From positions 1,206-65,205 of the forward strand of contig CAYTWE010000005.1 in assembly GCA_964440985.1 (NCBI GenBank): 64,000 nucleotides of DNA, given 5' to 3'. Under the pieces are notes generated by a model. That model made no database searches and had not been told where the DNA came from. It saw only the letters and a list, made by a program, of their open reading frames with translations. The stretch comes from an uncultured Lentisphaeraceae bacterium. Its GTDB lineage: Bacteria; Verrucomicrobiota; Kiritimatiellia; RFP12; UBA1067. Of this stretch, positions 18,281 to 56,071 are shown in pieces (position 1 is the first letter of the stretch; every line of letters starts with the position of its first letter). Both the position numbers and the translations under genes were made by a program.

Positions 18281-18290
18281 ACGCGATGTT

Positions 18291-24440: not shown

Positions 24441-24471
24441 ATGGATTTCGCAACTAAAAAGGAGTGATAAA

Positions 24472-37418: not shown

Positions 37419-37456
37419 CGGTCAGTGGAATTGCACATTTCATTGCATGAATAATC

Positions 37457-37485
37457 TGCATTGCCGTTGCGATATATGCTATAAT
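37457..37485 (+). promoter_or_regulatory. Promoter of the tadC-FHA-PEGA operon; 26/29 identical to 18252-18280
   Basis: TGCATTGCCGTTGCGATATATGCTATAAT. Confidence 0.72.
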
Positions 37486-37502
37486 TGCACCTCATTTTTC
37501 AG

Positions 37503-38417
37503 ATGATGACGCACCAACTGCCAATAATGCTTGTATGGGCCGCCGCTGCGGCCCTGCTCGTGTCGTATGCCGTTGCCATCGCCTCTGAGATAACGTATGT
37601 GACGCTGGCCGACGGACGCAAGACGGAGCGCAAGATCCCTCTCATTTTCCGTCTTCTGCTGCCGTTTGTCCCTAACCTGTCCCGTGTGGTGATGCGTCCG
37701 GCGTTTGCCAAGGCGCGTGAGACGGCGGACTGGATGATTGTCGCGTGCGGACTTGAAGGTCTGCTTACAGGAGCTGAGTTTCTGGCTCTCAAGGTGCTTG
37801 TTCCGCTTGTGTGCGGAACGGTCTGCGCGGCTGTCGTCGTCGCCTTGGGTGCGCTTGCGCCTGATTCGTTCCTTTCCGCAAACGGCCTGCTGTTCATCCT
37901 TATGGCTTTCGCCTATTTCTACGCATATCCGCTTCTTTGGCTGCGCAAGACGCTTAAGAGCCGCCATGCATCGATCATGCTTGCTCTGCCGTTCGTTCTC
38001 GACCTGCTTACGCTGTCCGTGGAGGCTGGCATGGATTTCATGAGTGCGCTTCAGCGCAATTGCGAACGGCGCAGACTCGACCCGCTGAACGAGGAGCTGA
38101 TACGCATGACACGCGAGATTCAGATGGGGGTTGCGCGCCGCGTTGCGCTCCGCAACATGGCCGACCGTGTACGGCAGCCGGATCTCAAGGCGGTATCTTA
38201 CGCACTCATACAGGCAGATGAGCTTGGTGTGCCGATCGGACCAATTCTGCGGATACAGTCCGAGCAGCTGCGCACTCGCAGGTTTGACCGTGCGGAGCGC
38301 CTGGCGAACGAGGCACCGGTCAAGATGCTCGGTCCGCTTCTGCTCTGCATCTTTCCGGCGGTCATGATCGTGCTGTTGGCCCCGATACTCATGGAAGCCG
38401 TAAAGAATATCATGTGA
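37503..38417 (+). CDS. tadC: Tad/Flp pilus inner-membrane platform protein (T2SSF family)
   Basis: LPFVLDLLTLSVEAGMDF, ALIQADELGVPIGPILRIQSEQLR..R...AE..A..APVKMLGPLLLCIFPA. Confidence 0.88.
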   Translation: MMTHQLPIMLVWAAAAALLVSYAVAIASEITYVTLADGRKTERKIPLIFRLLLPFVPNLSRVVMRPAFAKARETADWMIVACGLEGLLTGAEFLALKVLVPLVCGTVCAAVVVALGALAPDSFLSANGLLFILMAFAYFYAYPLLWLRKTLKSRHASIMLALPFVLDLLTLSVEAGMDFMSALQRNCERRRLDPLNEELIRMTREIQMGVARRVALRNMADRVRQPDLKAVSYALIQADELGVPIGPILRIQSEQLRTRRFDRAERLANEAPVKMLGPLLLCIFPAVMIVLLAPILMEAVKNIM

Positions 38418-38431
38418 AGGAGAGGTTTTGC

Positions 38432-39766
38432 ATGGAGACAAGAACACCAGATCTGCTGATGACCGCCGGTCCGCTGAAAGGGAGGCGGTTTACGGTCACC
38501 GATTCGGGGATGCGCCTTGGGCGGTCTTCATCGTGTGAGATATCCATCTCCGACATATCGCTTTCGCGCAACCAGTGCCTTTTCGAGCTGCGTGACGGCA
38601 AGGTCTGGATCACCGACCTTGCGAGCGCGAACGGAACAACCGTCAACGGCGAGGAGCTGGGATCGTCAAGTCGCGAGCTTGTGCCCGGAGACCGCGTCCA
38701 GGCCGGCGACAGCGAACTTGTGCTTGTGGACGAATCCGCACCGGATGGAACAGACGTTGAAGATGGGCAGATGCCTGGGGATGTCGATCTCGGGCTCTCA
38801 CCAAAAGGTGACGAGGCGGCGGATGAAGGCGCGGCTCCATCTGCGGGATCTCCGATGCGCCTGGTGCTTTGGCTTGCGCTCGTGCTTGTGCTGGCCGGAT
38901 CTGCCGTCGCCGTGCTGCTCGTTCCGCGTACTCCCGCAGACGATGCGGCGACAGTGGCGAAGCCGCTTGCCCACGCCAAGCTGTGGTCGGTGACGTACGA
39001 AAAGGTCGAGGCGAGCCCGAAGGGGATTTGCCGCTATGCCATCGAAGTCGATGCGCACGGAACGATGTCTGTCGCACTGGACGACGTTCCGGACAGCAAC
39101 AGGCACGTGAAGAAGTCGGCGGCGCTCTCCGACAAGGCGAAGGCGGAACTTGACAGAATGTTCTCGTCCTCTGCGCTGTACAGGTTGGAGAGCGAATATG
39201 CCGGTCCGGCGCGTCCTGGTGAGCTTGTGCGCTACGAACTGCGCATATCGCGCGGCGGCAAGGTGTTCTCCTGCCTTGTTGAGAATGCACCTGAACCGCC
39301 CGCGTTTCGCGAGACGCGCCTTGCGCTTGAGACATTCTCGCAGAACGAGCTTGGCGTGTGGGCCATCCAGTACTCCGGTGAGAAGCTTACGGAGATGAGC
39401 CTTGAGGCTCGCCGCTCCGCCGACGCCAAGTGGGAGGAGCGGGACGTCAACTACGGGAACCTTGCCGCCGCCCTGAAGCTGTATGACGAAGCCGTGCAGG
39501 ATCTGGAGACCGTGAACCCGAAACCTGTGGACTACGGCGAACTGATCGCAAAGCGCGACATAGTAAAGGCGGAGTTGGATCGCCGCTACAAGGATCAGCG
39601 GTTCGAGGCCGATCGGGCGGTAAACATGGGTGATTGGGAAAGGGCGCGTCGTGAACTGAGGATTCTGTGCGAACTCGTGCCGGACCAGAGTGATCCGCGC
39701 CATGCCGAGGCCGCCGCAAAGCTTATGGATGTCGACAACCGCCTCAAGAAGGGAGGCCTGAAATGA
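38432..39766 (+). CDS. FHA-domain bitopic membrane protein with a periplasmic helical/TPR-like C-terminus
   Basis: FHA motifs LGRS, SRNQC, DLASANGT.VNG, PGDRVQAG; acidic linker; one TM (LVLWLALVLVLAGSAVAVLL). Confidence 0.85.
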   Translation: METRTPDLLMTAGPLKGRRFTVTDSGMRLGRSSSCEISISDISLSRNQCLFELRDGKVWITDLASANGTTVNGEELGSSSRELVPGDRVQAGDSELVLVDESAPDGTDVEDGQMPGDVDLGLSPKGDEAADEGAAPSAGSPMRLVLWLALVLVLAGSAVAVLLVPRTPADDAATVAKPLAHAKLWSVTYEKVEASPKGICRYAIEVDAHGTMSVALDDVPDSNRHVKKSAALSDKAKAELDRMFSSSALYRLESEYAGPARPGELVRYELRISRGGKVFSCLVENAPEPPAFRETRLALETFSQNELGVWAIQYSGEKLTEMSLEARRSADAKWEERDVNYGNLAAALKLYDEAVQDLETVNPKPVDYGELIAKRDIVKAELDRRYKDQRFEADRAVNMGDWERARRELRILCELVPDQSDPRHAEAAAKLMDVDNRLKKGGLK

Positions 39767-41100
39767 GTATGCTTCGTTCAGCGTTTAAAGGGCTCTTCAG
39801 CCTTGTGGCCGTCGCAGCCGCCGCAGTCGCGCTTGCGGCCACGCCCACGCGCATTGACGTTACAGCCCGTCCTGAGGGGGCGAAGGTTCTGGTGGATGGC
39901 GTATCCAAGGGCGTGACGCCGGTGTCGGTGTTCGATGTAGAGGCGGGGAGCCATCTGCTTCGCATCGAGGCGGACGGTCATCGCTTCATTGAGGAGGTGG
40001 TTTCGGTTAAGGACGGGGATTTCCTGCGCAAGGACTACGAACTTGAGCAGGAGACCGGACTTCTTCTCGTCAAGACCGAACCCGAAGGCGCAAACGTCAA
40101 GTACGGCGGCGTCTCGCTCGGTGTCACGCCGCTGCTTGTGACCACGCTTTTGACGGACAGGTCGTATCCGCTTGAGCTTGAGAGTCTTGGCTATCAGTCT
40201 AAGCGCATAAACGTTACGCTCGCCGGGCGTACACCTGTCGCCGTGACGGAGAAGCTTGTGCTTGATTCCGGTGTGGTGGACTGCAGGACGGAGCCGGCTG
40301 GGGCGTCGGTGCTTGTGAACGGCATCGTGCGCGGGACGACGCCGTGCGTCGTCGAGCGCATCCCCAAGGGATATGCCACATTCGTCTTCAAGCTCAAAGG
40401 GTATGTGGATGAAAAGCGCGAACTGCGAATCGCTCCCGGAGACAGGCAGCAGCTTTCACTCTCAATGCAGGGACGCCCGGCAAGTATGTCCGTGATATCG
40501 TCGCCGGAGGGAGCACGCGTCACGATTGACGACAACTACGCCGGCAAGACGCCGATAACCGTTTCGCCGGTGCGTCCTGGCGTGCATACCATCAAGGCGG
40601 AGCTTGCGGGCTATGCGCCTGTGTTCAAGACCGTGGTGGTGGAAAACGGCGGTGAAGTGACGGAGATGTTCAGGTTTGAGTCCGTGCTCGGATGGATAGA
40701 GATCTCCACTACGCCGCCGGGCGCGAGAATCCTGCTTGACGGCAAGGCCGTAGGAATCACAGCCGCGCATCGCGGAAAGAAGGCCGATCTTTCCGGCGTT
40801 AAATCGGACGTCATGTATCTCCGCGACATAGAGGCCGGCGAACACGAGATCGTTGCGCATATGCGCGGGTATGCGGACTTCAAGCGCAAGATAAACGTCG
40901 TGGCGAAGAAATGCACCCCGATAACCGTGCGCATGAAACGGATATTCATTGCCGATACTGAGATCGAGACCGTGAACGGCACATATCGCGGTGTACTGAT
41001 GGACAGCGACAACCCCGACACCTACAGGCTTGAGGTCAAAGAGGGCATCACGCAGGATTTCCGGAAGACCGACGTGCGGACAATCAAGACAATCGATTGA
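39763..41100 (+). CDS. Secreted protein with five PEGA domains
   Basis: Repeats TARPEGAKVLVDG, KTEPEGANVKYGG, RTEPAGASVLVNG, ISSPEGARVTIDD, STTPPGARILLDG. Confidence 0.88.
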   Translation: MSMLRSAFKGLFSLVAVAAAAVALAATPTRIDVTARPEGAKVLVDGVSKGVTPVSVFDVEAGSHLLRIEADGHRFIEEVVSVKDGDFLRKDYELEQETGLLLVKTEPEGANVKYGGVSLGVTPLLVTTLLTDRSYPLELESLGYQSKRINVTLAGRTPVAVTEKLVLDSGVVDCRTEPAGASVLVNGIVRGTTPCVVERIPKGYATFVFKLKGYVDEKRELRIAPGDRQQLSLSMQGRPASMSVISSPEGARVTIDDNYAGKTPITVSPVRPGVHTIKAELAGYAPVFKTVVVENGGEVTEMFRFESVLGWIEISTTPPGARILLDGKAVGITAAHRGKKADLSGVKSDVMYLRDIEAGEHEIVAHMRGYADFKRKINVVAKKCTPITVRMKRIFIADTEIETVNGTYRGVLMDSDNPDTYRLEVKEGITQDFRKTDVRTIKTID

Positions 41101-41858
41101 TGAAGCAGCGTCTTGACCATGCACTTGCCGAACGAGGCCTTGCCGCTTCGCGCACCGCAGCCCAGGCGCTTGTCCTCGAAGGCAAGGTGCGTGTGAACGG
41201 GCAGGTGGCGGTGAAGTCTGCGCAGACCGTTCTTGAAAGCGACAGCATTGAGGTGGAGGCGCCGCCGAGGTTCGTCTCCCGTGGCGGAGAAAAGCTTGAA
41301 GGGGCGTTCGCCGCATTCTCTGGCCTTGACGTTGCCGGCCGCGTGTGTCTCGATGTCGGATCGTCCACAGGCGGATTCACAGACTGCCTTCTTCAGCATG
41401 GGGCGCTCCGCGTGATGGCCGTTGATGTCGGCACAAACCAGCTTGCGTGGAAACTGCGTTCCGATCCGAGGGTGTGGGTGCGGGAGAATTTCAACGCACG
41501 CTACCTTACGGCGCAAGACCTTCCGGAAAGGCCGTCCCGCGCCGTCACGGACGTAAGCTTCATATCGCTCAAGCTTATACTTCCGCCGATGGCGGAGGTG
41601 CTTGAGCCTGGAGGCGAGATTGTGTCCCTCATCAAGCCTCAGTTTGAGGCGGGACGCGGACTTGCACCCGGCGGAGTGGTGTCCGATCCGGCGGTGCGCC
41701 GTCATGTGGTGGAGGACATCACGGCGTTTGGGCAGGACGCCCTCGGGCTTTCGCTGCTTGGGGTCGCGGAGTCCCCGATACGCGGCCGCGACAAGGGAAA
41801 TGTGGAGTATCTTGCGTGGTGGCGCAAGCCGGTCAATCCGCCTGGAGGCGTTGAATGA
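41100..41858 (+). CDS. tlyA: TlyA-family rRNA 2'-O-methyltransferase
   Basis: S4 domain KQRLD, FVSRGGEKL, LDVGSSTGGFTD, DVSFISL, LIKPQFE, GNVEYL. Confidence 0.92.
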   Translation: MKQRLDHALAERGLAASRTAAQALVLEGKVRVNGQVAVKSAQTVLESDSIEVEAPPRFVSRGGEKLEGAFAAFSGLDVAGRVCLDVGSSTGGFTDCLLQHGALRVMAVDVGTNQLAWKLRSDPRVWVRENFNARYLTAQDLPERPSRAVTDVSFISLKLILPPMAEVLEPGGEIVSLIKPQFEAGRGLAPGGVVSDPAVRRHVVEDITAFGQDALGLSLLGVAESPIRGRDKGNVEYLAWWRKPVNPPGGVE

Positions 41859-42256
41859 TGAGAGACGTTTCAATTTTCGTTCTTGCTGCGGCGATGGCAT
41901 TCGCCGGCGGATGTGCGCATGAAACGTACATCGCCGACGCAAAGCATCCAGAAGTGGAGTACACGGAAGCCGGCGATCTGAAATGGCGCGGAAGGTTCAT
42001 AGAGCCGGAGGAGTTGCCGCACCTGCTCAGGAAGTCGGAAGTCGACGTAAAGTCGCAGATCGACATCCGTGTGCCGCAGAACATCCGCAGCCTGAAGGGG
42101 CCGAGACAGCTTCTGTTCATGCTTCGCAGGGCGGGATACACACGTGGAGTGCTCGTGACCGAGAAGAAGGCGTACTCCAGGGCTTCGTCTCCGCCCAAGA
42201 TGGATGCGGTGCGGCCGGACGCCTATCCGCAGAAACGCAAAATACGCTACAAATGA
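41855..42256 (+). CDS. Small lipoprotein with an ExbD/TolR-like periplasmic domain
   Basis: Lipobox FAGG-C; IDIRVP.......RQLLFMLRRAGYTRGVLVT resembles the ExbD C-terminal fold. Confidence 0.45.
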   Translation: MMRDVSIFVLAAAMAFAGGCAHETYIADAKHPEVEYTEAGDLKWRGRFIEPEELPHLLRKSEVDVKSQIDIRVPQNIRSLKGPRQLLFMLRRAGYTRGVLVTEKKAYSRASSPPKMDAVRPDAYPQKRKIRYK

Positions 42257-42287
42257 CGATTGCGCAGCGCTGCAATCCCCCTTTGAT

Positions 42288-44390
42288 ATGACGGATAAGG
42301 AAAACATCAGGAAACGCATAGACTTCTTGCGGGCGGAGATCGAGAGGCACGACCGCCTCTACTATGTGGAGGCTCGTCCCGTCATAGGCGACAGGGACTA
42401 CGATCTGCTGTACGACGAGCTGCTTAGGCTTGAGAGCGAAAACCCTGAGTTCCGTTCGGAGACATCCCCCACTCAGAGGGTATCCGGCGATACGGTGGAG
42501 GGCTTTGCCGAGGTGCGCCATTCCCCGCCGATGCAGTCGCTCGACAAGGTGCATTCGAAAGGTGAGCTTGCCGACTTTGATGCGATGGTGCGCCGTGAGA
42601 CTTCTGATTTCACGTACAGCGTAGAGCCGAAGATAGATGGCGTATCGATTTCGCTCAGATATGAAGGGCGGCAGCTCGTGTGTGCGGCGACGCGCGGCAA
42701 CGGCAAGGTCGGCGACGACGTCACCCTGAACGTGAAGACAATCCGCTCCGTCCCGCTTCGTCTGCCGCCGGATGCGCCGGAAGTTGTGGAGGTTCGCGGA
42801 GAGGTCTACATGACCCGCGACGGATTCGTGGAGCTGAACCGGCGTGAGGAGGAGGTTGGACACGAGCCGTTCGCGAATCCGCGCAACGCGGCGGCCGGAT
42901 CCCTCAAGCAGCGCAGCGCCAAGGATGCGGCGACACGGCCGCTCGATGTTGTGATCTACAACGCAGGCGGCGTCGGATGCGACGGATTCGCCACCCATGA
43001 GGAGATGATATCCGCATTCAGGCGCTGGGGTTTCCCGGTGTCGCCATGGTCGAGGGTCTGTGCCACGATGAACGAGGTGTTTGCGGCGATCGACGAGCTT
43101 GAGAGGCTGCGGCATACGTTCAGGTTTGAGATCGACGGCGCCGTCGTGAAGCTGAACGAACGCGCACTGTACGCTTCGCTCGGCGCAACGGCGCATGGCC
43201 CAAGATGGGCGCGGGCGTACAAGTATGCGCCAGAGCGGGTGGAGACGGTCGTCGAGGGGATCACTGTGCAGGTTGGGCGCACAGGTGTGCTTACGCCTGT
43301 CGCGGAGCTTAAGCCGGTGGAGCTTGCCGGATCTACGATCTCCCGTGCCACGCTGCACAACGCCGACCAGATTGCGCGTCAGGACATCCGCATCGGCGAT
43401 CATGTATGGCTCGTCAAGGCGGGCGATGTCATACCGGCCATAGAGTCATCGATTCCGCAGAAGCGCACCGGCGCAGAAACGGTGTTCGCCATGCCGTCCG
43501 CCTGTCCGGTCTGCGGCGGAACGGTGGAGCGTATTGAGGGCGAGGTCGCTCTGCGTTGCATGAACCCCGGCTGCCGTGCGCAGCTTGCCCGCCGCACAGT
43601 GCATTTCGCCTCCCGCAATGCACTTGATCTCAAGGCGCTTGGAGAAACGGCAATCGATGCGCTTGTGGAGCAGCGGTGGATTTCCGATCCTCTCGACCTG
43701 TTCAACCTCGAGGAGTCTCGGCTTGCATCGTTGAGAATAACGGGGCGTCTGTTCGGACGGAAAGCCGAATCGGTCGCGAAAGCGCTCGCCGCGGCACGTT
43801 CCCTGCCTCTGAACAGATGGCTGTTTGCGATCGGAATACCGGGCGTAGGCGAAACGGTCGCGGCGGATATAGCCGATCAGCATGAGAGGTTCTCCGACCT
43901 TGACGGCTCAGAGGTGCTTAAGGACGTAATCGAGAACGATGCACTTAAGGGTAAGGCCCGCAGAATACTTGCCATCAAGGCGGATGCCGCCAAGGCTGTT
44001 CTTGATTTCTTCAGAAGCGAATACGGCAGAAGGTGTCTTGCCAGGATGCAGGAGCTTGGCATTGACCCAAAGCGCGCCGCAAAGGGCGCGGTGGCGTCCG
44101 AAGGCCCGCTTGTCGGCAAGGGATGTGTGCTGACCGGTACGCTGTCGCGTCCGAGAGGCGAATACGCGGAGTTGATACGCATGGCCGGCGGCATTGTGCA
44201 GAGTGCGGTCACGTCGAACACAAGATACCTTATCGCCGGCGAAAACACCGGTGCGACAAAGACGGCGAAGGCGCGTCAGCTTGGTGTGCAGATCATAGGC
44301 GAGACGGAACTGAAGACGCTTCTCGGAAGTCCGGAATCAGGATCGGATGCGGGTGCTGCGGACACGCTGAAGCAGGGATCTCTGTTCTGA
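42288..44390 (+). CDS. ligA: NAD-dependent DNA ligase
   Basis: VEPKIDG, TRGNGKVGDDVT, NPRNAAAGSL, EIDGAVVK, VGRTGVLTP, CPVC/CMNPGC Zn-finger, BRCT domain. Confidence 0.97.
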   Translation: MTDKENIRKRIDFLRAEIERHDRLYYVEARPVIGDRDYDLLYDELLRLESENPEFRSETSPTQRVSGDTVEGFAEVRHSPPMQSLDKVHSKGELADFDAMVRRETSDFTYSVEPKIDGVSISLRYEGRQLVCAATRGNGKVGDDVTLNVKTIRSVPLRLPPDAPEVVEVRGEVYMTRDGFVELNRREEEVGHEPFANPRNAAAGSLKQRSAKDAATRPLDVVIYNAGGVGCDGFATHEEMISAFRRWGFPVSPWSRVCATMNEVFAAIDELERLRHTFRFEIDGAVVKLNERALYASLGATAHGPRWARAYKYAPERVETVVEGITVQVGRTGVLTPVAELKPVELAGSTISRATLHNADQIARQDIRIGDHVWLVKAGDVIPAIESSIPQKRTGAETVFAMPSACPVCGGTVERIEGEVALRCMNPGCRAQLARRTVHFASRNALDLKALGETAIDALVEQRWISDPLDLFNLEESRLASLRITGRLFGRKAESVAKALAAARSLPLNRWLFAIGIPGVGETVAADIADQHERFSDLDGSEVLKDVIENDALKGKARRILAIKADAAKAVLDFFRSEYGRRCLARMQELGIDPKRAAKGAVASEGPLVGKGCVLTGTLSRPRGEYAELIRMAGGIVQSAVTSNTRYLIAGENTGATKTAKARQLGVQIIGETELKTLLGSPESGSDAGAADTLKQGSLF

Positions 44391-44442
44391 CCCGCATTTC
44401 CGCGCGGACGGAATGCCGCTGCGGTTTTGAATCTCCGGCGTG

Positions 44443-44451
44443 TGGTATAAT
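44443..44451 (+). promoter_or_regulatory. Extended -10 TGGTATAAT, 7 nt upstream of ATG 44459
   Basis: Read directly. Confidence 0.7.
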
Positions 44452-44458
44452 TCGCCAC

Positions 44459-47400
44459 ATGAAAAGGTTTGCGCAGAGAGCGGCGTATGCGGTATGTGCC
44501 GTTTTTGCGGCGGTTTCGTGTTCTGCGGCCGTGTCGAGCATGGATTATCCGGATGCCGACGCCGTTGTCGTGGACGACATCACGCGCATTGAATACTTCC
44601 CCGACGGAACGTACGTCTCCGAAAACGACGAGCGCATTTTGGCGTTGACCGATAAGGGGCGCCGCTCGCTCCTCACGGCGTCGCTGTACGTGTCGCGCCG
44701 GTACGGTGATGCGGAGATCGTCAAGGTTGAGATAATCGGCACGAACGGCGTTGCCCGTGCCGTGGATTTCCGCAGTACGCTCAAGGAGGCGACAGACAAT
44801 TCATCGACTTCCTCCAACATATACGACCCGCTTGACCGGAAGATGTCTTGCGCCGTTACCGGCATGCAGATCGGTGAGATTCGGCGTGTCGTCACGCGTG
44901 AGCGGATGTCAAAGCCAAGGATGCGAGGGGCGTTCGCCACAGGTGCGCTGTTTGAGTCGACGATGCCGATTTTGCGTGCTTCATTAGAGATTGTGTCGCC
45001 GGCGGCGCTTCCGATCGTCAGCGAAAAGCTGCGGCATCCGCTTGAGGACACGGTGACGCGCATTCCGGACGAACGCCTTCCGGATGGGCGCGTCAGGATG
45101 AAATGGATCGCGGAGAACGTGCCGCAGGCGTTCGCCGAGCCGGACATGCCGTCCTTCGGATCGGTGTCGCAGAAGCTGCTCGTCTCCACGTCAAGGGGCT
45201 GGGAGGATGTGTCGCGCTGGTACTGGAACCTTTCTGTTCCGCATCTTGAGGCGACAAATCCCGCCATCTCGAACATGGTCGGCAAACTTGTCGGCGGGTT
45301 GTCGTCCGATATGGAGAAGATTCGCGCAATGTTCAGGTTCGTCTCCCAGGAGATACGCTACATGGGGCTTACGTTCGAGGATGAGTCGCCGGGGTACGCA
45401 CCGCACGACGTTTCCGTGACGTTCGACAGCAGATACGGTGTGTGCCGCGACAAGGCGGCTTTGCTTGCGGCCATGCTCCGCGTGGCGGGATTCGAGGCGT
45501 ATCCCGCACTCATATGCGCCGGTCCGAAGATGGACGATGACGTGCCGCTTCCATTCTTCAACCATGCGATAGTCGCCGTGGCGCATGGGCGGACGGCGTC
45601 CAAGCCCTCAGACTTCATCCTGATGGATCCGACCAACGAGAGCACAAGGGATCTGCTGCCAGCCTACCTCATGGACTGTTCGTATCTCGTGGCGCATCCA
45701 AAAGGGTTGCCACTCGCCGTCACGCCAGTCAAACCGGCCTCGGAGAACGCATTTCGTGCTGAGACCAGGGGGACGCTGTCCAATGACGGCTCTGCCATTG
45801 TCGAGACGTGCGCAACTTTCGGAGGAGTCAATGACCTGTTTCGCGGTGCGCTTCTCAAAAGGACGCAGAAGGAGCGCCGCAGGTTCTTCGAGAACATGGT
45901 GCGCTCGGAGTACCCAGGTGCGGAGCTGCTTTCATTCGAGTTGACTCCGACGGATCTGCGCGACACTGACAGCGCTCTTCGCGTTTCGATGACGGTGCGG
46001 CTTGCCGATCTTGTGGTGCGGGGTGCTACACGGGACGAGCTGACGCCACCGTTTTTGTTTTCCGGCTTTTCCGTGGCTGACCGGCTTCTGTCAAGCGGAA
46101 CGGAACTGGAAAGGCGCCGTTATCCGCTGAAGTTCTATTCAACTGCACTTGCTGAGGAACGCCTTTCGCTCAAGCTCGGCGATGCTGTCGGCATTCCGGT
46201 GAGCGTGCCGCCTGATGTCATCGCGGGCGAGAACGGTTGCCGTTACGAGAGGAGCATTGCGGTGTCGGACGGCATACTTACGGCGACACGGCTTCGCGCA
46301 GTTGACGCAACGGAACTTTCGCCGGAGGAGTATCTGAAGCTCAAGGAGGACCTTGAGACAATAGAGTTGGGAATCAGGCGGGAACCGCAGTTTGCCGCCC
46401 GCGACGGCGGAGCGGAGGCGAACGTCCGCATCGTATGTGACAGACGGGACGTTCACATATCGTCGCCGAACAGCTGGACGGTGACGAATGAGTGGGAGCG
46501 CGAGATCCTTACGTATGCGGGGAAGAAAAGCTCTGCCGAACTGAGCTACGGCTACAATCCGTGCGTCGGTACAATTGAAATTGTGTCCGCGACAGTGTCG
46601 AACCGCGATGGACGTGTGCATTCCGTCATGCCGCAGGAGATGAACAGGCTTGATGCCGGGTGGGTGGCAGGTGCGCCGCGCTATCCGGCAGGCAAGAGGC
46701 TTGTGGTGAATCTTCCCGCAGTCGAGATCGGCAGCGTGATACGTGTCAAGACGGTCGCCACGGTTACAAATTCGCCAATCGGTTTCTGCAGTTTGTATGC
46801 GTTTGACTCCGTTGATCCCATAACGGTCAAGGAACTCAGAGTGGACAGCTCTGAATGCGGCGATTCGTCCATGAAGGTCGCGTGGGGTAGGGAGTTGGGG
46901 CGCGTGGTCACGACGAATTGCATATCGTTTGCCGTCACGAATCCGGCGGCTCTTCCGCGTGAGGGCGCACAGCCGCCCGCCATGCTGTGGAGAAATTGCG
47001 TGTTGCTGTCGCTTGCCGATCTTGAACGGCATCGGGAGGCTCTGTGCGCCGAACTTGCGGCGGCGCGTTCCAGAGGTTCGGATGCAGCAAGGGCCAAGGC
47101 TGTTGAACTTGCCGCAGGACATGATTCAGCGGAAGGGCGGATAAAGGCTGTGAGGGATTGGCTGTGGAGGAATGTGCGGCTTGCCGGGCCTGATATGCTT
47201 GAGTTGCCGTTCGAGACGGCATTCTTCCCGCCGGACCGTTCGATTGCAGACGGATATGCGTCGGAGGCTGATTGGATGAACGTCTACTTCACTATGCTGG
47301 AGGCGATAGGCTGCGATGTGGAGTTTGTGCTGTCGGATGGGGATGCGGCCGGGTATCCGGCGCTGTCGCGCATACGCCGCGCCGTGCCTCAGCCGGACGA

Positions 47401-48196
47401 CTTCAGTGAACTGTTCATTCGTGCGACAGTGCGCGAAGGGGCGTTTCTTGGATTGTTCGGCGGTGAGGAAAGAACGTTCATCCTCGCCTATGAGAACGAC
47501 TGCACACCGCTCGGAGTGAGGGACGTTGACGGCCGCAGCGGCAAGACGGAGAGCCACATGTCGTTTGACGTGAACGAAACAGGGGCCGCCCGAATCACGG
47601 TGTCGAACTCCACATGGGGCGTTTCCGTCGCCGCCTTGCGCAAGCTGTATTCGGAGATGCTTCCGGAGAAGAGGTCTCGGCATCACGCCGAGCTTGTCGG
47701 CGCAATCGCTGAATCGGCAGAGGCGATATCGGAGCTTCATACGGATGTTGACGGATATCCGTTCTTCATCCGGTATTCCGTCTATGCGCCGAACTATGCC
47801 GCAAAGAACGGTGACACGCTCACGCTTGAGGTGCCTGGGCTTGGAGGTGCATTTCTGCCGAACTCCGATGGCGGACGGAAAAGTCCGTTTGGCGTCGGCG
47901 GACGGCTTCAGCCGATGGTGACGGTGCGCGAAATCGTTCTGCCGGAAGGGTACACGGCTGTAGAGCATCTGCCGGAGGCATGGGAAATTACGTTGCCTAT
48001 GGATGATGGCGCACGTTGCCGGAGTGAGGTGTTGAGCAGTGTGGTGGACGGACGACTGCGAGTGCTTGTGCGAGAGGAGCTGCTGCCTGTCAATGCGAGA
48101 ATGTTCGGATCGGAGTGGCTTGGATTCTTCCGTGACTGGAACAGACGCACGGACTCTCGGATCTCCCGCACCATCGTCGTCAGGAAAGAGAGATGA
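44459..48196 (+). CDS. Secreted fusion of two DUF3857/transglutaminase-like modules
   Basis: Module 1 has GVCRDKAALL, FNHAIV, MDPT (Cys-His-Asp); module 2 (PAVEIGSVI, IKAVRDWLWRNVR) lacks the Cys. Confidence 0.8.
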   Translation: MKRFAQRAAYAVCAVFAAVSCSAAVSSMDYPDADAVVVDDITRIEYFPDGTYVSENDERILALTDKGRRSLLTASLYVSRRYGDAEIVKVEIIGTNGVARAVDFRSTLKEATDNSSTSSNIYDPLDRKMSCAVTGMQIGEIRRVVTRERMSKPRMRGAFATGALFESTMPILRASLEIVSPAALPIVSEKLRHPLEDTVTRIPDERLPDGRVRMKWIAENVPQAFAEPDMPSFGSVSQKLLVSTSRGWEDVSRWYWNLSVPHLEATNPAISNMVGKLVGGLSSDMEKIRAMFRFVSQEIRYMGLTFEDESPGYAPHDVSVTFDSRYGVCRDKAALLAAMLRVAGFEAYPALICAGPKMDDDVPLPFFNHAIVAVAHGRTASKPSDFILMDPTNESTRDLLPAYLMDCSYLVAHPKGLPLAVTPVKPASENAFRAETRGTLSNDGSAIVETCATFGGVNDLFRGALLKRTQKERRRFFENMVRSEYPGAELLSFELTPTDLRDTDSALRVSMTVRLADLVVRGATRDELTPPFLFSGFSVADRLLSSGTELERRRYPLKFYSTALAEERLSLKLGDAVGIPVSVPPDVIAGENGCRYERSIAVSDGILTATRLRAVDATELSPEEYLKLKEDLETIELGIRREPQFAARDGGAEANVRIVCDRRDVHISSPNSWTVTNEWEREILTYAGKKSSAELSYGYNPCVGTIEIVSATVSNRDGRVHSVMPQEMNRLDAGWVAGAPRYPAGKRLVVNLPAVEIGSVIRVKTVATVTNSPIGFCSLYAFDSVDPITVKELRVDSSECGDSSMKVAWGRELGRVVTTNCISFAVTNPAALPREGAQPPAMLWRNCVLLSLADLERHREALCAELAAARSRGSDAARAKAVELAAGHDSAEGRIKAVRDWLWRNVRLAGPDMLELPFETAFFPPDRSIADGYASEADWMNVYFTMLEAIGCDVEFVLSDGDAAGYPALSRIRRAVPQPDDFSELFIRATVREGAFLGLFGGEERTFILAYENDCTPLGVRDVDGRSGKTESHMSFDVNETGAARITVSNSTWGVSVAALRKLYSEMLPEKRSRHHAELVGAIAESAEAISELHTDVDGYPFFIRYSVYAPNYAAKNGDTLTLEVPGLGGAFLPNSDGGRKSPFGVGGRLQPMVTVREIVLPEGYTAVEHLPEAWEITLPMDDGARCRSEVLSSVVDGRLRVLVREELLPVNARMFGSEWLGFFRDWNRRTDSRISRTIVVRKER

Positions 48197-48285
48197 CTTC
48201 CGCCATCGGCGCCTCTTCCTTCTGCGCATCTCTTCTGCTTGCGTTTCTGAAGATTGTTGTGGCGGTTCACCGGCATGAGGCGATT

Positions 48286-48294
48286 TGCTACAAT
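48286..48294 (+). promoter_or_regulatory. Extended -10 TGCTACAAT for the flavoprotein-trmL unit
   Basis: Read directly; about 70-nt leader follows. Confidence 0.55.
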
Positions 48295-48370
48295 AGGAGG
48301 CAAAAGGCAGAGCTGGGATCGGATCGCAGATGCCGAAAGACATTTTTGGAGTTTTGTTGAGGGCAACACA

Positions 48371-48916
48371 ATGAAAAAGATACTGATAATCTCGGCATCG
48401 CCGAGAAAATGCGGAAACAGCGACATCCTGTGCGACGAGTTTGCTCGTGGTGCGAAGGATGCAGGGAACGAGGTCGAGAAGATCCGCCTTGCGGAAATGA
48501 AGGTCGCATACTGCATGGGCTGCTATGCCTGCAGAAAACTTCACAAGTGTGTACTGAATGATGATGCGAACGAACTTGTCGCCAAAATGCTGGCTGCTGA
48601 CGTAATCGTCCTTGCCACGCCCGTCTATTTCTACTCAATGGACGCGCAGCTCAAGGCGCTCATCGACCGTTCCGTCTCGCGATGGGATGATTTTGGATTG
48701 TTCAAGGGAACCGAGTTCTGGTTCATTGTGACGGCGGCAGACACGAGCCGCGACATGATGAACGCCACGTTGGAGGGGCTGCGCGGATTCACGCGGGATT
48801 GCATGGAAGGCGCCGTCGAGCGCGGCGTGATCTACGGCACCGGTGCATACGAAAAGGGTGAAGTCCGCTCCCTGCCAGTGATGAAAGAGGCATACGAAGC
48901 AGGTTTAAGGGCGTGA
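48371..48916 (+). CDS. Iron-sulfur flavoprotein / flavodoxin-fold NADPH-dependent FMN reductase family
   Basis: ISASPRKCGNS, CMGCYAC...KC Cys motif, LATPVYFY. Confidence 0.85.
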   Translation: MKKILIISASPRKCGNSDILCDEFARGAKDAGNEVEKIRLAEMKVAYCMGCYACRKLHKCVLNDDANELVAKMLAADVIVLATPVYFYSMDAQLKALIDRSVSRWDDFGLFKGTEFWFIVTAADTSRDMMNATLEGLRGFTRDCMEGAVERGVIYGTGAYEKGEVRSLPVMKEAYEAGLRA

Positions 48917-49386
48917 AAGGGGGACGCTTTTCGATAGTCCTTCTCCGTCCGGAGATACCGCACAACACCGGTGCGATTGGCCGGCTCTGCGTTGGACTGG
49001 GAGTACCGCTCCATCTCGTCAAGCCGCTCGGCTTTGCGCTTGACGACCGCTCAATCGCCCGTGCGGGACTTGACTATTGGCCGCATCTTGATGTCGAGCT
49101 TCACGACACATGGGACGATTACCTTGCCGCCGTGTCGCCACGTCGTCTGCACTTTCTCTCTACGCATGGCAGACGGTCGCTTTATGACTGCCGTTTTGAG
49201 CAGGGAGATGCGCTTGTGTTCGGCAACGAATCGTCCGGACTGCCCGCCGGATTCTACAATCGCTATGAGGAGTCCCTATTCAGGATTCCCATGCCAGGCG
49301 AACACGCCCGGAGCATCAACTTGGCCAACGCCGTGTCAATCGCCGCATATGAATGCTACCGGCAGCTGACATATGGCGGACAGTGA
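48913..49386 (+). CDS. trmL: tRNA (cytidine/uridine-34 2'-O)-methyltransferase
   Basis: PEIPHNTGAIGR, RAGLDYW, VFGNESSGLP, RSINLANAV. Confidence 0.92.
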   Translation: MKGGRFSIVLLRPEIPHNTGAIGRLCVGLGVPLHLVKPLGFALDDRSIARAGLDYWPHLDVELHDTWDDYLAAVSPRRLHFLSTHGRRSLYDCRFEQGDALVFGNESSGLPAGFYNRYEESLFRIPMPGEHARSINLANAVSIAAYECYRQLTYGGQ

Positions 49387-49437
49387 ATGAATTGCCACTT
49401 CCCTTGCTGCGGCAAAGATGCAAATGTGCCGCCATGC

Positions 49438-49466
49438 TTGAAAAGGGAGGGGCGAAACTGTATAAT
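49438..49466 (+). promoter_or_regulatory. sigma70 promoter TTGAAA-17-TATAAT for fba
   Basis: Near-consensus with exact spacing. Confidence 0.75.
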
Positions 49467-49510
49467 ACAACACCGTTTGTTTTGAACCCAACAGGGAAAA
49501 GGAAATCAAG

Positions 49511-50509
49511 ATGGTCAGCTACAAGGAACTTGGCCTCGTCAACACGAAAGAGATGTTTGCGAAGGCTGTAAAGGGCGGATATGCAATTCCGGCCTTCAAC
49601 TTCAACACGATGGAGCAGATGCAGGCGATCGTCCAGGCCGCCGTTGAAACCAAGTCGCCCGTCATCATGCAGGTGTCCAAGGGTGCGCGCAAGTACGCCA
49701 ACCCCACGATTCTCCGCTACATGGCGCAGGGCGCGGTCGAATACGCGAAGGAACTGGGCTGCGCGAATCCGCAGATCGTCCTCCACCTCGACCATGGCGA
49801 CAGCTTCGAGACGTGCAAGAGCTGTATCGATTCGGGTTTTTCGAGCGTCATGATCGACGGCTCTTCCCTGCCGTTCGAGAAGAACATCGAAGTCACGAAG
49901 CAGGTCGTCGATTACGCGCACGCGCATGATGTCACGGTCGAGGCCGAACTCGGCGTGCTCGCGGGCGTCGAGGATGAAGTCGCCGCCGAGGAGAGCCACT
50001 ACACGAAGCCCGAGGAAGTGATTGAATTCGCCACGAAGACGGGTTGCGATTCGCTCGCCATTTCGATCGGCACGTCCCACGGCGCCTACAAGTTCAAGCC
50101 GGAACAGTGCACGCGCGACCCCAAGACGGGCAAGCTCGTTCCGCCGCCGCTCGCGTTCGACGTTCTCGCCGAAATCGAAAAGAAGCTCCCCGGCTTCCCG
50201 ATCGTTCTCCACGGTTCCTCCTCCGTCCCGCAGGACGAGGTCGACACGATCAACAAGTTCGGCGGCAAGCTGCCGGACGCGGTCGGCATTCCGGAGGAGC
50301 AGCTCCGCAAGGCCGCGAAGAGCGCCGTGTGCAAGATCAACATCGATTCCGATTCCCGTCTCGCGATGACGGCGGCCATCCGCCAGCACTTCGCGGAACA
50401 TCCGGATCACTTCGATCCGCGCCAGTACCTCACCCCGGCGCGTGAGAACATGAAGAAGATGTACATCCACAAGATCGTCAATGTGCTTGGCTCGAACGAC
50501 AAGCTCTGA
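49511..50509 (+). CDS. fba: Fructose-1,6-bisphosphate aldolase class II
   Basis: AIPAFNFN, LHLDHG, GFSSVMIDGS, VEAELGVL, GTSHGAYKF, IVLHGSS, KINIDSD. Confidence 0.96.
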   Translation: MVSYKELGLVNTKEMFAKAVKGGYAIPAFNFNTMEQMQAIVQAAVETKSPVIMQVSKGARKYANPTILRYMAQGAVEYAKELGCANPQIVLHLDHGDSFETCKSCIDSGFSSVMIDGSSLPFEKNIEVTKQVVDYAHAHDVTVEAELGVLAGVEDEVAAEESHYTKPEEVIEFATKTGCDSLAISIGTSHGAYKFKPEQCTRDPKTGKLVPPPLAFDVLAEIEKKLPGFPIVLHGSSSVPQDEVDTINKFGGKLPDAVGIPEEQLRKAAKSAVCKINIDSDSRLAMTAAIRQHFAEHPDHFDPRQYLTPARENMKKMYIHKIVNVLGSNDKL

Positions 50510-50556
50510 TAGGTCTCTGTGCGAACGCTGCGCACGATGATGCGCGGCAGGTTGAG

Positions 50557-50590
50557 AAGGGGGATGCGCTGAAGCGCATCCCCCTTTCTC
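50557..50590 (+). terminator. Rho-independent terminator after fba
   Basis: Perfect 13-bp stem AAGGGGGATGCGC-TGAA-GCGCATCCCCCTT followed by TCTC/TGTTT. Confidence 0.8.
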
Positions 50591-50775
50591 TGTTTATAGA
50601 CTGCTCGATTTGCGGTTGGGTTTTGGTTGCTCATCGCAGAGGCGTCCTTGTCACATCAAAGACGAACTTCTCGCAGTTGTGGCTTGGTCTTTCATCGTAG
50701 CGGGCCGCAGACGGCAATCCAAATGGGGATGGTGGCGAGGTGTAAAGGGTGGCGTTGGATTGTTGGACGATATTA

Positions 50776-50784
50776 TGCTAAAAT
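50776..50784 (+). promoter_or_regulatory. Extended -10 TGCTAAAAT, 7 nt upstream of ATG 50792
   Basis: Read directly. Confidence 0.65.
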
Positions 50785-50791
50785 AGCGCAC

Positions 50792-52228
50792 ATGAACAAC
50801 AACAAGGCTACGTCGTTTCGGTGGATCATCTGCGCGATGCTCTTTGCCGCCACAACCGTCAATTACCTGGATCGTCAGGTTCTTTCCCTTACGTGGAAGG
50901 ACTTTATCGCACCAGAGTTTCACTGGAACGATTCGCACTACGGCGTAATCACCGGCTATTTCTCCCTCATTTACGCCGTGTGCATGCTTTTCGCCGGACG
51001 CATAGTCGACTGGCTCGGCACGATGAAAGGCTATTTGTGGGCCATATTCATATGGTCTGCCGCCGCCTGTGCCCATGCGGCCTGCGGTTGGGCGACGATG
51101 CACATCGAGGGCGTGGAATCCATCGCGGCGATGAAGGCGATTGAGTCCGGCTCGGCTCTCGCGGTCGCCGTCGGCTCCACATCGATGTGGCTGTTCCTCG
51201 CCTGCCGCTGCTTCCTCGGTTTGGGCGAGGCCGGAAACTTCCCGGCCGCAATCCGTGTGACCTCGGAGTATTTTCCGAAGAAGGATCGTGCGTTCGCGAC
51301 GTCAATCTTCAATTCAGGCTCGTCGGTCGGCGCCTTGGCCGCACCTGCGCTCATCCCGCCTATGGCGAAGTGCTGGGGGTGGGAATCGGCGTTCGTGGTC
51401 ATCGGTGCGCTCGGCTTCATCTGGATGGGATTCTGGATGCTCTTCTACCGCAAGCCGGAGGCCAGTCCGCACGTCAACGCTGCGGAGCTTGCCTACATCA
51501 ATTCCGACAATGCGGCAGGTGCGGACGCCACAGCCAAGGATGACGGGAAGGGCGTATCCATATGGAAATGCTTCACACTCAAGCACACGTGGGCGCTTCT
51601 GCTCGGACGCTTCACGACCGACGGCGTTTGGTGGTTCTTCCTCTTCTGGACGCCAAGCTATCTTTCAGACCAGTTTGGCTACACCAGTTCGTCTGGCATG
51701 GGCATGACGCTCATCATCGTCCTCTACGCCATCGTGACGTTCCTCTCCATCTACCTCTGCAAGATTCCGACATGGTTCGTTGACAGGAAGGGCATGAATC
51801 CGTACGAAGGGCGCATGGTTGCGATGTTCATCTTCGCGTGTCTTCCGCTCCTTGCGCTCGGCGCCCAGCCGCTCGGCTCGATGAGCGCGTGGTGGCCCGC
51901 CATCCTGATCGGCATCGCCTGCGCAGGACATCAGGCCTGGAGCGCAAACGTGTACTCCGTAGTCGGCGACATGTTCCCCAAGTCCACGATAGGCACTCTC
52001 ACCGGCATCGCCGGCCTTGCGTCCGGATGCGGCAGCTTCCTCGTCAACATCGGAGCCGGCAAGCTCTTTACGTGGTCGGCGGCGCAGGGCGATGCATTCG
52101 CGTTCCTCGGCTACACCGGCAAGCCCGCCGGCTACATGGTGATGTTCTGCTACTGTGCGTTTGCGTACCTTATCGGCTGGACGTGCATGAAGGTGCTCGT
52201 TCCGAAATACAGGCCGGTTGAACTCTGA
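50792..52228 (+). CDS. MFS transporter, ExuT-like hexuronate permease
   Basis: RWIICAMLFAATTVNYLDRQ, GLGEAGNFPAAI, EYFPKKDRAFAT, FWTPSYL, HQAWSAN. Confidence 0.85.
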   Translation: MNNNKATSFRWIICAMLFAATTVNYLDRQVLSLTWKDFIAPEFHWNDSHYGVITGYFSLIYAVCMLFAGRIVDWLGTMKGYLWAIFIWSAAACAHAACGWATMHIEGVESIAAMKAIESGSALAVAVGSTSMWLFLACRCFLGLGEAGNFPAAIRVTSEYFPKKDRAFATSIFNSGSSVGALAAPALIPPMAKCWGWESAFVVIGALGFIWMGFWMLFYRKPEASPHVNAAELAYINSDNAAGADATAKDDGKGVSIWKCFTLKHTWALLLGRFTTDGVWWFFLFWTPSYLSDQFGYTSSSGMGMTLIIVLYAIVTFLSIYLCKIPTWFVDRKGMNPYEGRMVAMFIFACLPLLALGAQPLGSMSAWWPAILIGIACAGHQAWSANVYSVVGDMFPKSTIGTLTGIAGLASGCGSFLVNIGAGKLFTWSAAQGDAFAFLGYTGKPAGYMVMFCYCAFAYLIGWTCMKVLVPKYRPVEL

Positions 52229-52249
52229 CCGCTGCTGGCGTGATTTGCC

Positions 52250-53632
52250 ATGAAGGACGTGTTCGCGTACGTAATCGGTCTCGGCGCATCTGTGATGATG
52301 CCCGTGATATTCACTGTTCTTGGAGTGTGCATCGGCGTAAAGTTCTCCAAGGCGCTGAAATCCGGACTGCTTGTCGGAGTCGGCTTCGTCGGGCTTGGTG
52401 TCGTCACCGGGCTTCTGACGAATGGCGCGAACAACCTCGGCGCCGCGCTCGGACAGATGACGGAAATATACCGCCTGAACCTTTCGTTCTTCGACCTCGG
52501 TTGGCCGGCCGCCGCTGCCGTAGCGTATTCGACTGCGGTTGGCGCTTTCATCATTCCGGTATGTCTTGGCGTGAACGTGCTGATGCTCGTCACAGGGACT
52601 ACGCGTACGGTGAACATAGATCTCTGGAACTACTGGCACTTCGCGTTCCTCGGCGGCATTGTGTTCTACGCCACGGATTCGCTCGCCTGGGCGTTCTACG
52701 CGGCGGTTGTGCTGTATGTCATCACGCTCTGCATGGCGGATTTCACCGCCAAGGGATTTCAGGGCTACTACAAGGACATGGACGGCATTTCCATTCCGCA
52801 GCCGTTCTGCCAGAGCTTCACGCCGTTCGCCGTCGGCATCGGCTGGCTGCTTGACAGGATTCCCGGCTTTGACCGCCTCGACATAGATGCCGCGGGGATG
52901 AAGCGGAAGTTCGGCCTCTTCGGCGATCCGCTTTTCCTTGGCGTCGTAATCGGATGCGTCATCGGCGCACTTGCCTGCCCGACGTGGAATGCAGTCGTCG
53001 ACCGCATCCCCAAGATACTCGCCCTCGGCGTCACGCTTGGCGCCGTCATGGAGTTGATTCCGCGCATCACGTCGCTTTTCATTGAAGGGCTGAAGCCGAT
53101 TCAGGAGGCGACACGCTCGTTTGTGGAGCGCAGGTTCTCCGGTCTGAAAGGGCTTTCCATCGGAATGTCGCCGGCTGTGGTCATCGGACATCCCACTACG
53201 CTGGTCGTCTCAATCCTGCTCATACCTGTCATACTTGTGCTGGCGGCGTTCCTTCCCGGCAACAGGTTCCTGCCGCTTGCGTCGCTCGCAGGAATGTTCT
53301 ACCTGTTTCCGTGCGTACTTCCGATCACGAAGGGCAACGTACCGAAGACGTTTGTCGTAGGTCTTGTCGCGCTTGTTGCCGGGCTGTATTTCATAACGAA
53401 CCTGACACCGGCGTTCACGAAGGCTGTCGTGGCGGTGAACGATGCCGCATACAGCGTTCCGCAGGGGATGGATGGCGTCGCCGCCCTCGATTTCGCTTCC
53501 GCATTCTGGTGCTGGCTTCTGTATCATCTCACGGTCTCGCTAAAGACTGTCGGCGCAATTGCCGCCGGTGCGTTGGCGGCGGCAATGATCGCCGTGAATT
53601 TCGTGAGAATCAGAAGGCTGTCATCAAGGTGA
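52250..53632 (+). CDS. GatC-like (galactitol PTS IIC family) membrane protein, orphan
   Basis: IGLGASVMMPVI, DLGWPAAAA, TRTVNIDLWNYWH, LIPRITSLFIEGLKPI, IGMSPAVVIGHP. Confidence 0.85.
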   Translation: MKDVFAYVIGLGASVMMPVIFTVLGVCIGVKFSKALKSGLLVGVGFVGLGVVTGLLTNGANNLGAALGQMTEIYRLNLSFFDLGWPAAAAVAYSTAVGAFIIPVCLGVNVLMLVTGTTRTVNIDLWNYWHFAFLGGIVFYATDSLAWAFYAAVVLYVITLCMADFTAKGFQGYYKDMDGISIPQPFCQSFTPFAVGIGWLLDRIPGFDRLDIDAAGMKRKFGLFGDPLFLGVVIGCVIGALACPTWNAVVDRIPKILALGVTLGAVMELIPRITSLFIEGLKPIQEATRSFVERRFSGLKGLSIGMSPAVVIGHPTTLVVSILLIPVILVLAAFLPGNRFLPLASLAGMFYLFPCVLPITKGNVPKTFVVGLVALVAGLYFITNLTPAFTKAVVAVNDAAYSVPQGMDGVAALDFASAFWCWLLYHLTVSLKTVGAIAAGALAAAMIAVNFVRIRRLSSR

Positions 53633-53675
53633 CGGTCGCTGTACGGTCGATCAGAACAACAAGGAGACAAGAGAG

Positions 53676-55067: not shown

Positions 55068-55082
55068 GAACTGGAGAAAACC

Positions 55083-56024: not shown

Positions 56025-56071
56025 TGAAGCGCCCATCGGTTGGCCGACATAGCACAGATTGAAGTGAAACC

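Follow-up and report, generated by a model that had tools for sequence, protein, structure and literature searches.

Six closely packed genes on the + strand occupy positions 37503-44390 of the stretch of DNA analysed here, which comprises 64,000 nucleotides of contig CAYTWE010000005.1 of an uncultured Lentisphaeraceae bacterium (hereafter the window), and encode, in this order, a TadC-type platform protein, a protein that joins an FHA domain to a transmembrane (TM) helix (FHA-TM), a protein with five PEGA domains (5x PEGA), TlyA, a lipoprotein of 133 amino acids (aa) and LigA. The first three genes, the tadC-FHA-TM-PEGA trio, and their relation to Tad/Flp pilus machines are the subject of this work. 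A preliminary description, made from the letters of the DNA alone, had given all six genes these positions and this strand, which domain calls with Pfam and NCBIfam bear out, and had read them as tadC fused into a TlyA/ExbD-like operon for a possible Kil-like contact or secretion apparatus. Pfam scans of the large open reading frames (ORFs) of the 64-kb window returned no tadA, tadB, flp, cpaB, secretin or prepilin peptidase gene, and because no other gene for a pilus, for secretion or for a kinase emerged from them, the earlier observation that tadC stands there without tadB, tadA and flp is confirmed.

Predicted architecture of the three proteins

The platform gene (37503..38417, 304 aa) encodes the single T2SSF domain of a TadC-type protein (Pfam 2.4e-15 at aa 172-298). 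A TadC hidden Markov model (HMM) built here scores its orthologues at ~380 bits and TadB proteins at ~40 bits, and where relatives have a complete tad operon, the orthologue of the window's gene is its second T2SSF gene; a sequence search of the PDB with TadC returned nothing useful.

For FHA-TM (38432..39766, 444 aa; Pfam FHA 7e-16), an AlphaFold2 (AF2) model built from 37 homologues (mean predicted local distance difference test score, pLDDT, 76.8) begins with an FHA domain (residues 1-100), joined by an acidic, disordered linker (102-139) to a TM helix (141-162), after which comes a periplasmic part (pLDDT 83-95) composed of an alpha/beta domain (184-284) and a weakly TPR-like helical domain (290-439). 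Foldseek matches the FHA domain to those of GarA and OdhI, and the alpha/beta domain to Mago-nashi-type folds with a target TM-score of ~0.7. Pfam signals beyond FHA are weak and confined to some of the orthologues (DUF6438, in 12 of 47, Emfourin and TPR). The phosphothreonine-contacting residues G30, R31, S45 and N67 are invariant across the 47 orthologues, which are 25-73% identical, and Gln takes the place that His normally has in the SxxH motif. Judged from these alignments and the model, the domain keeps both the FHA fold and the Gly-Arg, Ser and Asn residues with which FHA domains bind phosphothreonine. In the same set of orthologues a VDLG(L)G motif at residues 118-122, within the disordered linker, is nearly invariant, and it could be a docking motif.

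The PEGA gene (39763..41100, 445 aa; Pfam PEGA 5e-59) encodes five PxGA motifs at residues 36, 106, 177, 247 and 317, that is ~70 residues apart, together with a signal peptide and a short C-terminal extension. Most orthologues have a leader of the signal-peptidase-I type; a lipobox pattern falls within the first 90 residues of 9 of 44, in some of them away from the leader-peptide position. The domain content proposed earlier thus stands for both proteins, a secreted one with five PEGA domains and one with a cytoplasmic FHA domain, a TM helix and a periplasmic part with a helical domain, to which the alpha/beta domain has to be added.

Genomic context of the trio in related species

Close strains and a species that is 80% identical keep all six genes between differing flanks, and because the gene 5' of tadC varies among relatives (GH5-like, AraC or metG), the conserved block begins at tadC. 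A search of a representative library for TadC relatives, followed by their alignment and a scan of one genome per species, yielded 80 loci from 80 genomes of the Planctomycetes-Verrucomicrobia-Chlamydiae (PVC) group, mostly Kiritimatiellia, with TadC proteins 47-80% identical to the window's; these loci were read by clustering homology-supported ORFs and by tblastn with each family. The arrangement of the window, with unrelated genes upstream of tadC and with FHA-TM and PEGA downstream, recurs in 36 of the 80 loci. Twelve loci combine tadA/tadB upstream with FHA-TM and PEGA downstream, and 17 combine tadA/tadB upstream with something other than FHA-TM downstream. Three hold tadC alone; five include FHA-TM but do not extend far enough upstream for classification, and the flanks of seven are too short for it on one or both sides. 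Viewed gene by gene, tadA/tadB adjoin tadC in 32 relatives, tadC is followed by FHA-TM in 53 of the 80 species, and PEGA comes directly after FHA-TM in every one of the 46 loci that have room for it. The tadC-FHA-PEGA synteny, whose conservation was to be checked, is found in at least 48 species and is not unique to this genome.

The solitary tadC genes (L041, L057 and L067) stand among housekeeping or otherwise unrelated conserved genes (clusters C22 and C43), and in a further locus, L081, tadC is also alone, with upstream sequence too short to tell what precedes it; these four represent a third way in which the operon has broken.

An intact operon is present in the complete genome of Kiritimatiellota bacterium B12222 (CP120722, L075:2911-13684). 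Read with Pfam, it runs from Flp_Fap, TadE, Tad (TadG-like), TadE and a gene with no match through RcpC/CpaB, FHA+T2SSE and a first T2SSF gene (TadB) to a second T2SSF gene (the TadC orthologue), FHA-TM and 5x PEGA, and this order is common to at least eight other environmental species. In a neighbour-joining tree of TadC rooted on TadB, a distance tree that carries no support values, the intact operons are basal and the window lies in a derived, mainly split-type clade; conservation of the TadC sequence is continuous from the intact to the split contexts. The Kiritimatiellota tad operons examined for them (CP120722 and the gut loci L166, L174 and L177) and their immediate surroundings contain no gene for a secretin, a prepilin peptidase (peptidase_A24), TadZ or TadD; either these are encoded elsewhere or the machine has another way across the outer membrane. 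In six environmental loci with an intact operon, a convergent DUF192 (COG1430) gene lies just 3' of PEGA (Pfam 4e-16; L056:13647-14000 on the - strand, L060, L065, L068, L069 and L084).

Location of the remaining tad genes

The other half of the operon was followed by a metagenome scan anchored on TadB, which provided 55 informative loci. In 19 of these tadB is followed by tadC, and in the other 36 the operon ends at tadB, with no further T2SSF gene detected by the TadB and TadC HMMs in the downstream sequence, which extends for up to 10 kb. A protein search with gut-clade TadB returned 3,459 relatives, and contigs of gut metagenome-assembled genomes (MAGs) carry flp-tadE-tadG-x-x-cpaB-FHA::ATPase-tadB followed by ddl-ftsQAZ, ferredoxin or thiamine pyrophosphokinase genes, one contig having only cpaB-ATPase-tadB and then yebC. 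Both halves are found on a single contig in the split-clade MAG JAKSOX01 from horse faeces (L010; TadC 70% identical to the window's), where Pfam reads the order tadC-FHA-TM-PEGA-tlyA-cpaB-FHA::ATPase-tadB, and in L049 tadE and tadG-like genes come after tlyA. The ATPase of these relatives (CP120722, L010 and the gut operons) has an N-terminal FHA domain fused to T2SSE. Consecutive NCBI protein accessions do not place tadC and tadB in one MAG, as most MAG proteins have none, and the two that have one, MBR4616470 (TadC) and MBR4654526 (TadB), lie ~38,000 numbers apart and thus belong to different MAGs.

In one related gut species, ~9 kb separate the tadB-ending operon (L192:5346-16236) from a gene for an FGGY sugar kinase, which shares 70% DNA identity with the first gene of the window (123-1775). 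The Logan contigs of the window species all break ~1.5 kb upstream of the FGGY gene, where the genes present are different ones (aldolase_II and acetyltransferase).

Differential coverage was used to ask whether the organism of the window has these genes itself. Eight gut or faeces metagenome runs from three studies hold the window at ≥99% identity, and all eight also hold a contig (7.5-11.3 kb) that is colinear with cpaB, the ATPase gene and tadB of L010 at ~82% DNA identity, recovered in run 8 only as a 656-bp fragment. Depths, taken as k-mer means of the contigs, were 25.8 for the window contig and 28.5 for this co-varying tad contig in run 1, 12.8 and 14.2 in run 2, 12.0 and 13.9 in run 3, 23.8 and 26.5 in run 4, 22.8 and 24.9 in run 5, 22.9 and 25.2 in run 6, 48.1 and 60.1 in run 7, and ~6 and 5.7 in run 8. 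The ratio of the cpaB-ATPase-tadB contig to the window accordingly stays between 0.95 and 1.25 over an 8-fold range of depth (Pearson r = 0.997), and the depth of a second tad contig family from these runs does not follow that of the window (r = 0.54). Because the depths track one another this closely, the organism very likely has the remaining tad genes elsewhere, and more specifically the population of the window very likely carries cpaB-tadA-tadB outside the 64 kb, for which the evidence is good but indirect. The search for the remaining tad genes that the preliminary description called for has in this way found them elsewhere in relatives and, as a co-abundant cpaB-ATPase-tadB contig, alongside the window. 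Flp pilin and TadE/F/G genes belong to the operons of relatives and are absent from the window, beyond which the organism was not searched for them.

Selection and expression

Compared with a strain that is 98% identical, the ratio of nonsynonymous to synonymous substitution rates (dN/dS) is 0.026 for tadC, 0.062 for FHA-TM and 0.069 for PEGA, and 0.082 and 0.051 for tlyA and ligA, respectively. The trio is thus under strong purifying selection on a par with its housekeeping neighbours. In one gut metatranscriptome, short contigs of a 90-95% identical relative cover parts of tadC, PEGA, the lipoprotein gene and ligA, and they span the tadC/FHA-TM and the lipoprotein/ligA junctions.

A probable displaced module of a Tad pilus machine

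We consider it probable that tadC-FHA-TM-PEGA is the displaced distal module of the Tad/Flp (type IVc) pilus machine of the Kiritimatiellota, the rest of which is encoded elsewhere in the genome. The ancestral state would have been a single operon of flp, tadE, tadG-like, tadE, a gene without known family, cpaB, an FHA-fused TadA/CpaF ATPase gene, tadB, tadC, FHA-TM and PEGA, which in the gut and rumen clade that includes the window would have been broken into separate transcription units, namely the pilins with cpaB-tadA-tadB, in some cases only cpaB-tadA-tadB, and tadC-FHA-TM-PEGA. The trio would have landed by housekeeping genes, with metG upstream in many species and tlyA downstream, and here with the lipoprotein gene and ligA in addition, so that TlyA, the lipoprotein and LigA would be co-transcribed passengers. 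Rather than a tadC fused into a TlyA/ExbD-like operon, the window would then hold the 3' part of an ordinary-looking flp...tadA-tadB-tadC operon, detached from the rest in the gut clade; nor does the idea of a self-contained, separate apparatus hold, since the same trio closes the intact operon in relatives and the remaining tad genes lie elsewhere. What does hold from the preliminary description is that tadC-FHA-PEGA is a conserved functional block, given its recurrence in so many species, the unfailing succession of FHA-TM and PEGA and a dN/dS of 0.03-0.07.

TadC requires TadB and ATPase partners, and in the machine that we envisage it would pair with a TadB encoded elsewhere to form the inner-membrane platform at which the FHA-ATPase would assemble the Flp pilin. 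Because FHA-TM and PEGA are tightly linked to each other and stand at the operon's end, we regard them as accessory parts of the same machine, and their layout, in which a phosphopeptide-reading domain in the cytoplasm is anchored in the membrane, continues into a periplasmic domain and is accompanied by a secreted protein of five beta-sandwich domains, suggests an adaptor between the inner membrane and the periplasm. FHA-TM would be its inner-membrane part, with the FHA domain docked to a phosphorylated protein, for instance the ATPase or its linker, and with the periplasmic alpha/beta and helical domains contacting the secreted PEGA protein, so that the two could form a periplasm-spanning accessory to a machine whose operon is devoid of secretin, TadZ and TadD. 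Phosphorylation on Ser/Thr may control both this adaptor and the FHA-fused ATPase. One can go further and tentatively imagine, although we find it doubtful, that FHA-TM and PEGA are structural subunits of a Tad machine of the PVC lineage, forming a phosphorylation-controlled stalk from the inner membrane into the periplasm that replaces the missing TadZ, TadD and secretin-associated parts, and that the system is the first Kil-type, that is FHA-governed, Tad variant outside the Myxococcota and Bdellovibrionota, dispersed over several loci in abundant gut anaerobes.

Several points weigh against assigning the trio to a pilus machine in this manner. The presence of tadA, tadB and cpaB elsewhere in the organism rests on co-abundance and on relatives rather than on a closed assembly, and, with genes for a secretin, a prepilin peptidase and TadZ missing from every operon examined, a complete and working pilus is putative. 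Among the large ORFs of the window, Pfam found no Ser/Thr kinase or phosphatase, and the contacts of the FHA domain with a phosphorylated partner and of the periplasmic domain with PEGA are ones that we infer. The 17 species with tadAB-tadC have no adjacent FHA-TM and PEGA, and a few have tadC alone; such genomes may do without FHA-TM and PEGA, or may have the two genes elsewhere. Finally, the RNA evidence is thin, in that it consists of short contigs from a related strain with possible carry-over of DNA.

Comparison with known systems and alternative explanations

With the type IVc systems of Aggregatibacter (tad) and Caulobacter (cpa) the trio shares the single-T2SSF TadC-type platform, and the operon of the relatives additionally shares Flp, TadE/TadG-like pseudopilins, CpaB/RcpC, a CpaF/TadA-type ATPase and TadB. 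It differs from them in that the examined Kiritimatiellota operons are without secretin (RcpA/CpaC), TadZ/CpaE, TadD and prepilin peptidase (TadV/CpaA), that the ATPase is FHA-fused, that the operon ends with two extra conserved genes, FHA-TM and 5x PEGA, and that in the gut clade the tad genes are scattered over two or three loci. CpaF proteins fused to FHA are recognised as "class III", which occurs outside predators and mostly in Betaproteobacteria (PMC12019362); the FHA-linker-T2SSE ATPase of the Kiritimatiellota operon resembles them, but no partner FHA-TM or PEGA genes are described in that paper, and the ATPase in our case lies outside the window. FHA-TM in turn resembles SctD/YscD/PrgH of type III secretion, TagH/Fha of type VI secretion and GltG in having a cytoplasmic FHA or FHA-like domain, one TM helix and a periplasmic domain, and it matches Pfam Yop-YscD_cpl at 9e-14. 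An assignment to SctD was nonetheless rejected (TIGR02500 16.5 bits against a cut-off of 86), and its periplasmic part, Mago-like alpha/beta with weak DUF6438 signals followed by a helical domain, differs from that of SctD in having no ring-building motifs.

Among whole systems that have been described, the closest is the Tad-like Kil system, with which Myxococcus xanthus kills prey upon contact (PMC8460266). Its ATPase KilF is fused to an FHA domain, it has CpaB and TadG-like genes and neither TadZ nor TadD, and it is encoded in two gene clusters (PMC8460266), and of its several other FHA proteins MXAN_4649, which is PrgH-like, adjoins the platform gene kilH, and MXAN_4648 combines FHA with TPR (PMC8460266, supplement). 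The relatives of the window correspondingly have an ATPase with an N-terminal FHA domain, an FHA protein beside the TadC-type gene, a similar order of pilins, CpaB, TadB, TadC and FHA protein, no TadZ or TadD, and genes dispersed over several loci. The resemblance in layout is real and is one of domains and gene order. That the trio should belong to a Kil-like machine for contact-dependent killing or effector delivery, used against neighbouring gut cells, is very unlikely all the same. Kil has parts of its own, namely a short N0-less secretin (KilC), a peptidase (KilA), a cytoplasmic FHA-TPR protein (KilD) and the Tip minor pilins, of which we found none in the Kiritimatiellota operons examined. 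The Tip genes are reported to be restricted to Myxococcota (PMC12075869), and FHA-fused CpaF also occurs outside predators (PMC12019362). PEGA proteins, conversely, are no reported component of Kil, and the genes around the trio (GH92, fucosidase, FGE-sulfatase) are those of a saccharolytic gut anaerobe.

The separation of the trio from other tad genes in at least 36 species, its packing with tlyA and here with ligA, the few species with a solitary tadC among housekeeping genes (L041, L057 and L067) and the strong purifying selection would likewise suit a trio that has been co-opted for a pilus-independent envelope complex, for example in sensing or envelope maintenance. We regard this as unlikely, because the same three genes lie inside the intact operon of basal relatives, cpaB, tadA and tadB are retained in split-clade genomes, and TadC conservation does not break between the two contexts; we also know of no TadC-type protein that works without an ATPase and TadB. 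If, on the other hand, the orphan tadC, with no other tad gene found in 64 kb, were the decaying remnant of a lost Tad system, one would not expect ORFs that are intact in dozens of species, an RNA signal, or a tadA/tadB contig co-abundant with the window, and the dN/dS of the trio (0.026-0.069), in line with those of ligA and tlyA, leads us to reject this idea, to which we give almost no credence.

Returning to the displaced pilus module, the Kiritimatiellota thus seem to possess a conserved version of the Tad machine in which the motor is fused to FHA, FHA-TM would serve as an adaptor and a protein of PEGA repeats would lie in the periplasm, all from an operon without secretin, TadZ or TadD. 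The earlier proposal of a non-canonical Tad machine is upheld in that the trio belongs to a Tad-like system rich in FHA domains, one of them at the N-terminus of the relatives' ATPase. A search of the full-text literature did not link PEGA domains or Kiritimatiellota to Tad pili, so that in the literature searched this version has no description. More generally, comparative synteny can explain an apparently orphan secretion gene in an organism that annotators would otherwise read as Tad-less or as having a pseudo-system, and the explanation is relevant to the means by which Kiritimatiellia, widespread in gut and rumen, adhere to mucin, to particles of polysaccharide or to other cells. Since FHA proteins are an unexplained hallmark of Kil, a second and simpler FHA-rich Tad lineage also offers an independent system in which to study the role of FHA modules in pilus machines.

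Neighbouring genes, junctions and surroundings

The gene after PEGA, tlyA (41100..41858), encodes an S4 domain and an FtsJ-like methyltransferase (Pfam S4 + FtsJ) and, at 224.1 bits, exceeds the TIGR00478 cut-off of 185.8, which makes its product an rRNA cytidine-2'-O-methyltransferase; nothing in the analysis suggests a haemolysin activity. All 24 loci that have tlyA after PEGA are split-type loci, and none of the 10 loci in which the operon is intact and there is room for it has tlyA there. The linkage may be pure hitch-hiking, although it is unusually persistent for the gene of an rRNA methyltransferase. In JAKSOX01 (L010:8585-12757), tlyA sits among tad genes, between PEGA and cpaB-tadA-tadB.

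The lipoprotein gene (41855..42256; lipobox AGGC) occurs only in genus-level relatives of the window, in six loci including the window itself. Three orthologues have no Pfam match at E ≤ 10, no NCBIfam family applies, and a profile search found no PDB sequence match at E ≤ 10; its single-sequence AF2 model (pLDDT 42) is unusable for recognising a fold. The designation "ExbD-like" is therefore unsupported, the more so as the protein is anchored by its lipobox and not by a TM helix as in ExbD/TolR. The NAD-dependent DNA ligase gene ligA (42288..44390; NF005932 at 3e-209) adjoins the block only in the closest relatives. That tlyA and ligA are bystanders had been suspected correctly, the former being linked only in the split clade and the latter only in the closest relatives; together with the lipoprotein gene they are passengers that were gained after the split and stand outside the pilus module.

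Within the block, a Shine-Dalgarno sequence, AGGAGAGG, lies between the tadC stop and the ATG of FHA-TM, the FHA-TM/PEGA and tlyA/lipoprotein junctions are ATGA overlaps, and PEGA and tlyA overlap by 1 nt. The junctions look translationally coupled, and this spacing and these overlaps fit the coupling that had been proposed for the genes after tadC. A promoter of its own for tadC was not confirmed: the 84-nt gap in front of it (37419..37502, + strand) contains a perfect -10 hexamer, TATAAT, at 37480-37485, but a sigma-70 scan gave no full promoter match upstream of tadC. Between the lipoprotein gene and ligA, a gap of 31 nt harbours a perfect 20-nt palindrome, GATTGCGCAGCGCTGCAATC (42258..42277), which the terminator scan called as a hairpin on the - strand and which has a 1-nt deletion at 42277 in one metatranscriptome contig. 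The sole terminator-like hairpin of the block on the + strand lies at 44497-44512, 3' of ligA, and terminator-like matches are no commoner in this region than in shuffled sequence.

According to Pfam, the other large ORFs of the window encode glycoside hydrolases, FGE-sulfatase proteins, V-ATPase subunits, transporters and housekeeping proteins. The regions 1-34000 and 44000-62000 contain the repertoire of a polysaccharide degrader, with GH92, a GtaA-like glutaminase, two FGE-sulfatase proteins, a fucosidase, a 1410-aa GH42-like protein, beta-helix/GH141-like proteins and a 1245-aa transglutaminase/DUF3857 protein, and genes for V-type ATPase subunits lie at 22075-24440. The AT skew falls to between -0.20 and -0.28 at 18000-22000 and 24000-26000, stretches that encode a 603-aa protein without Pfam match, GT2 and GT87 glycosyltransferases and a MatE transporter, and this negative skew probably reflects the T-rich codons of membrane proteins.

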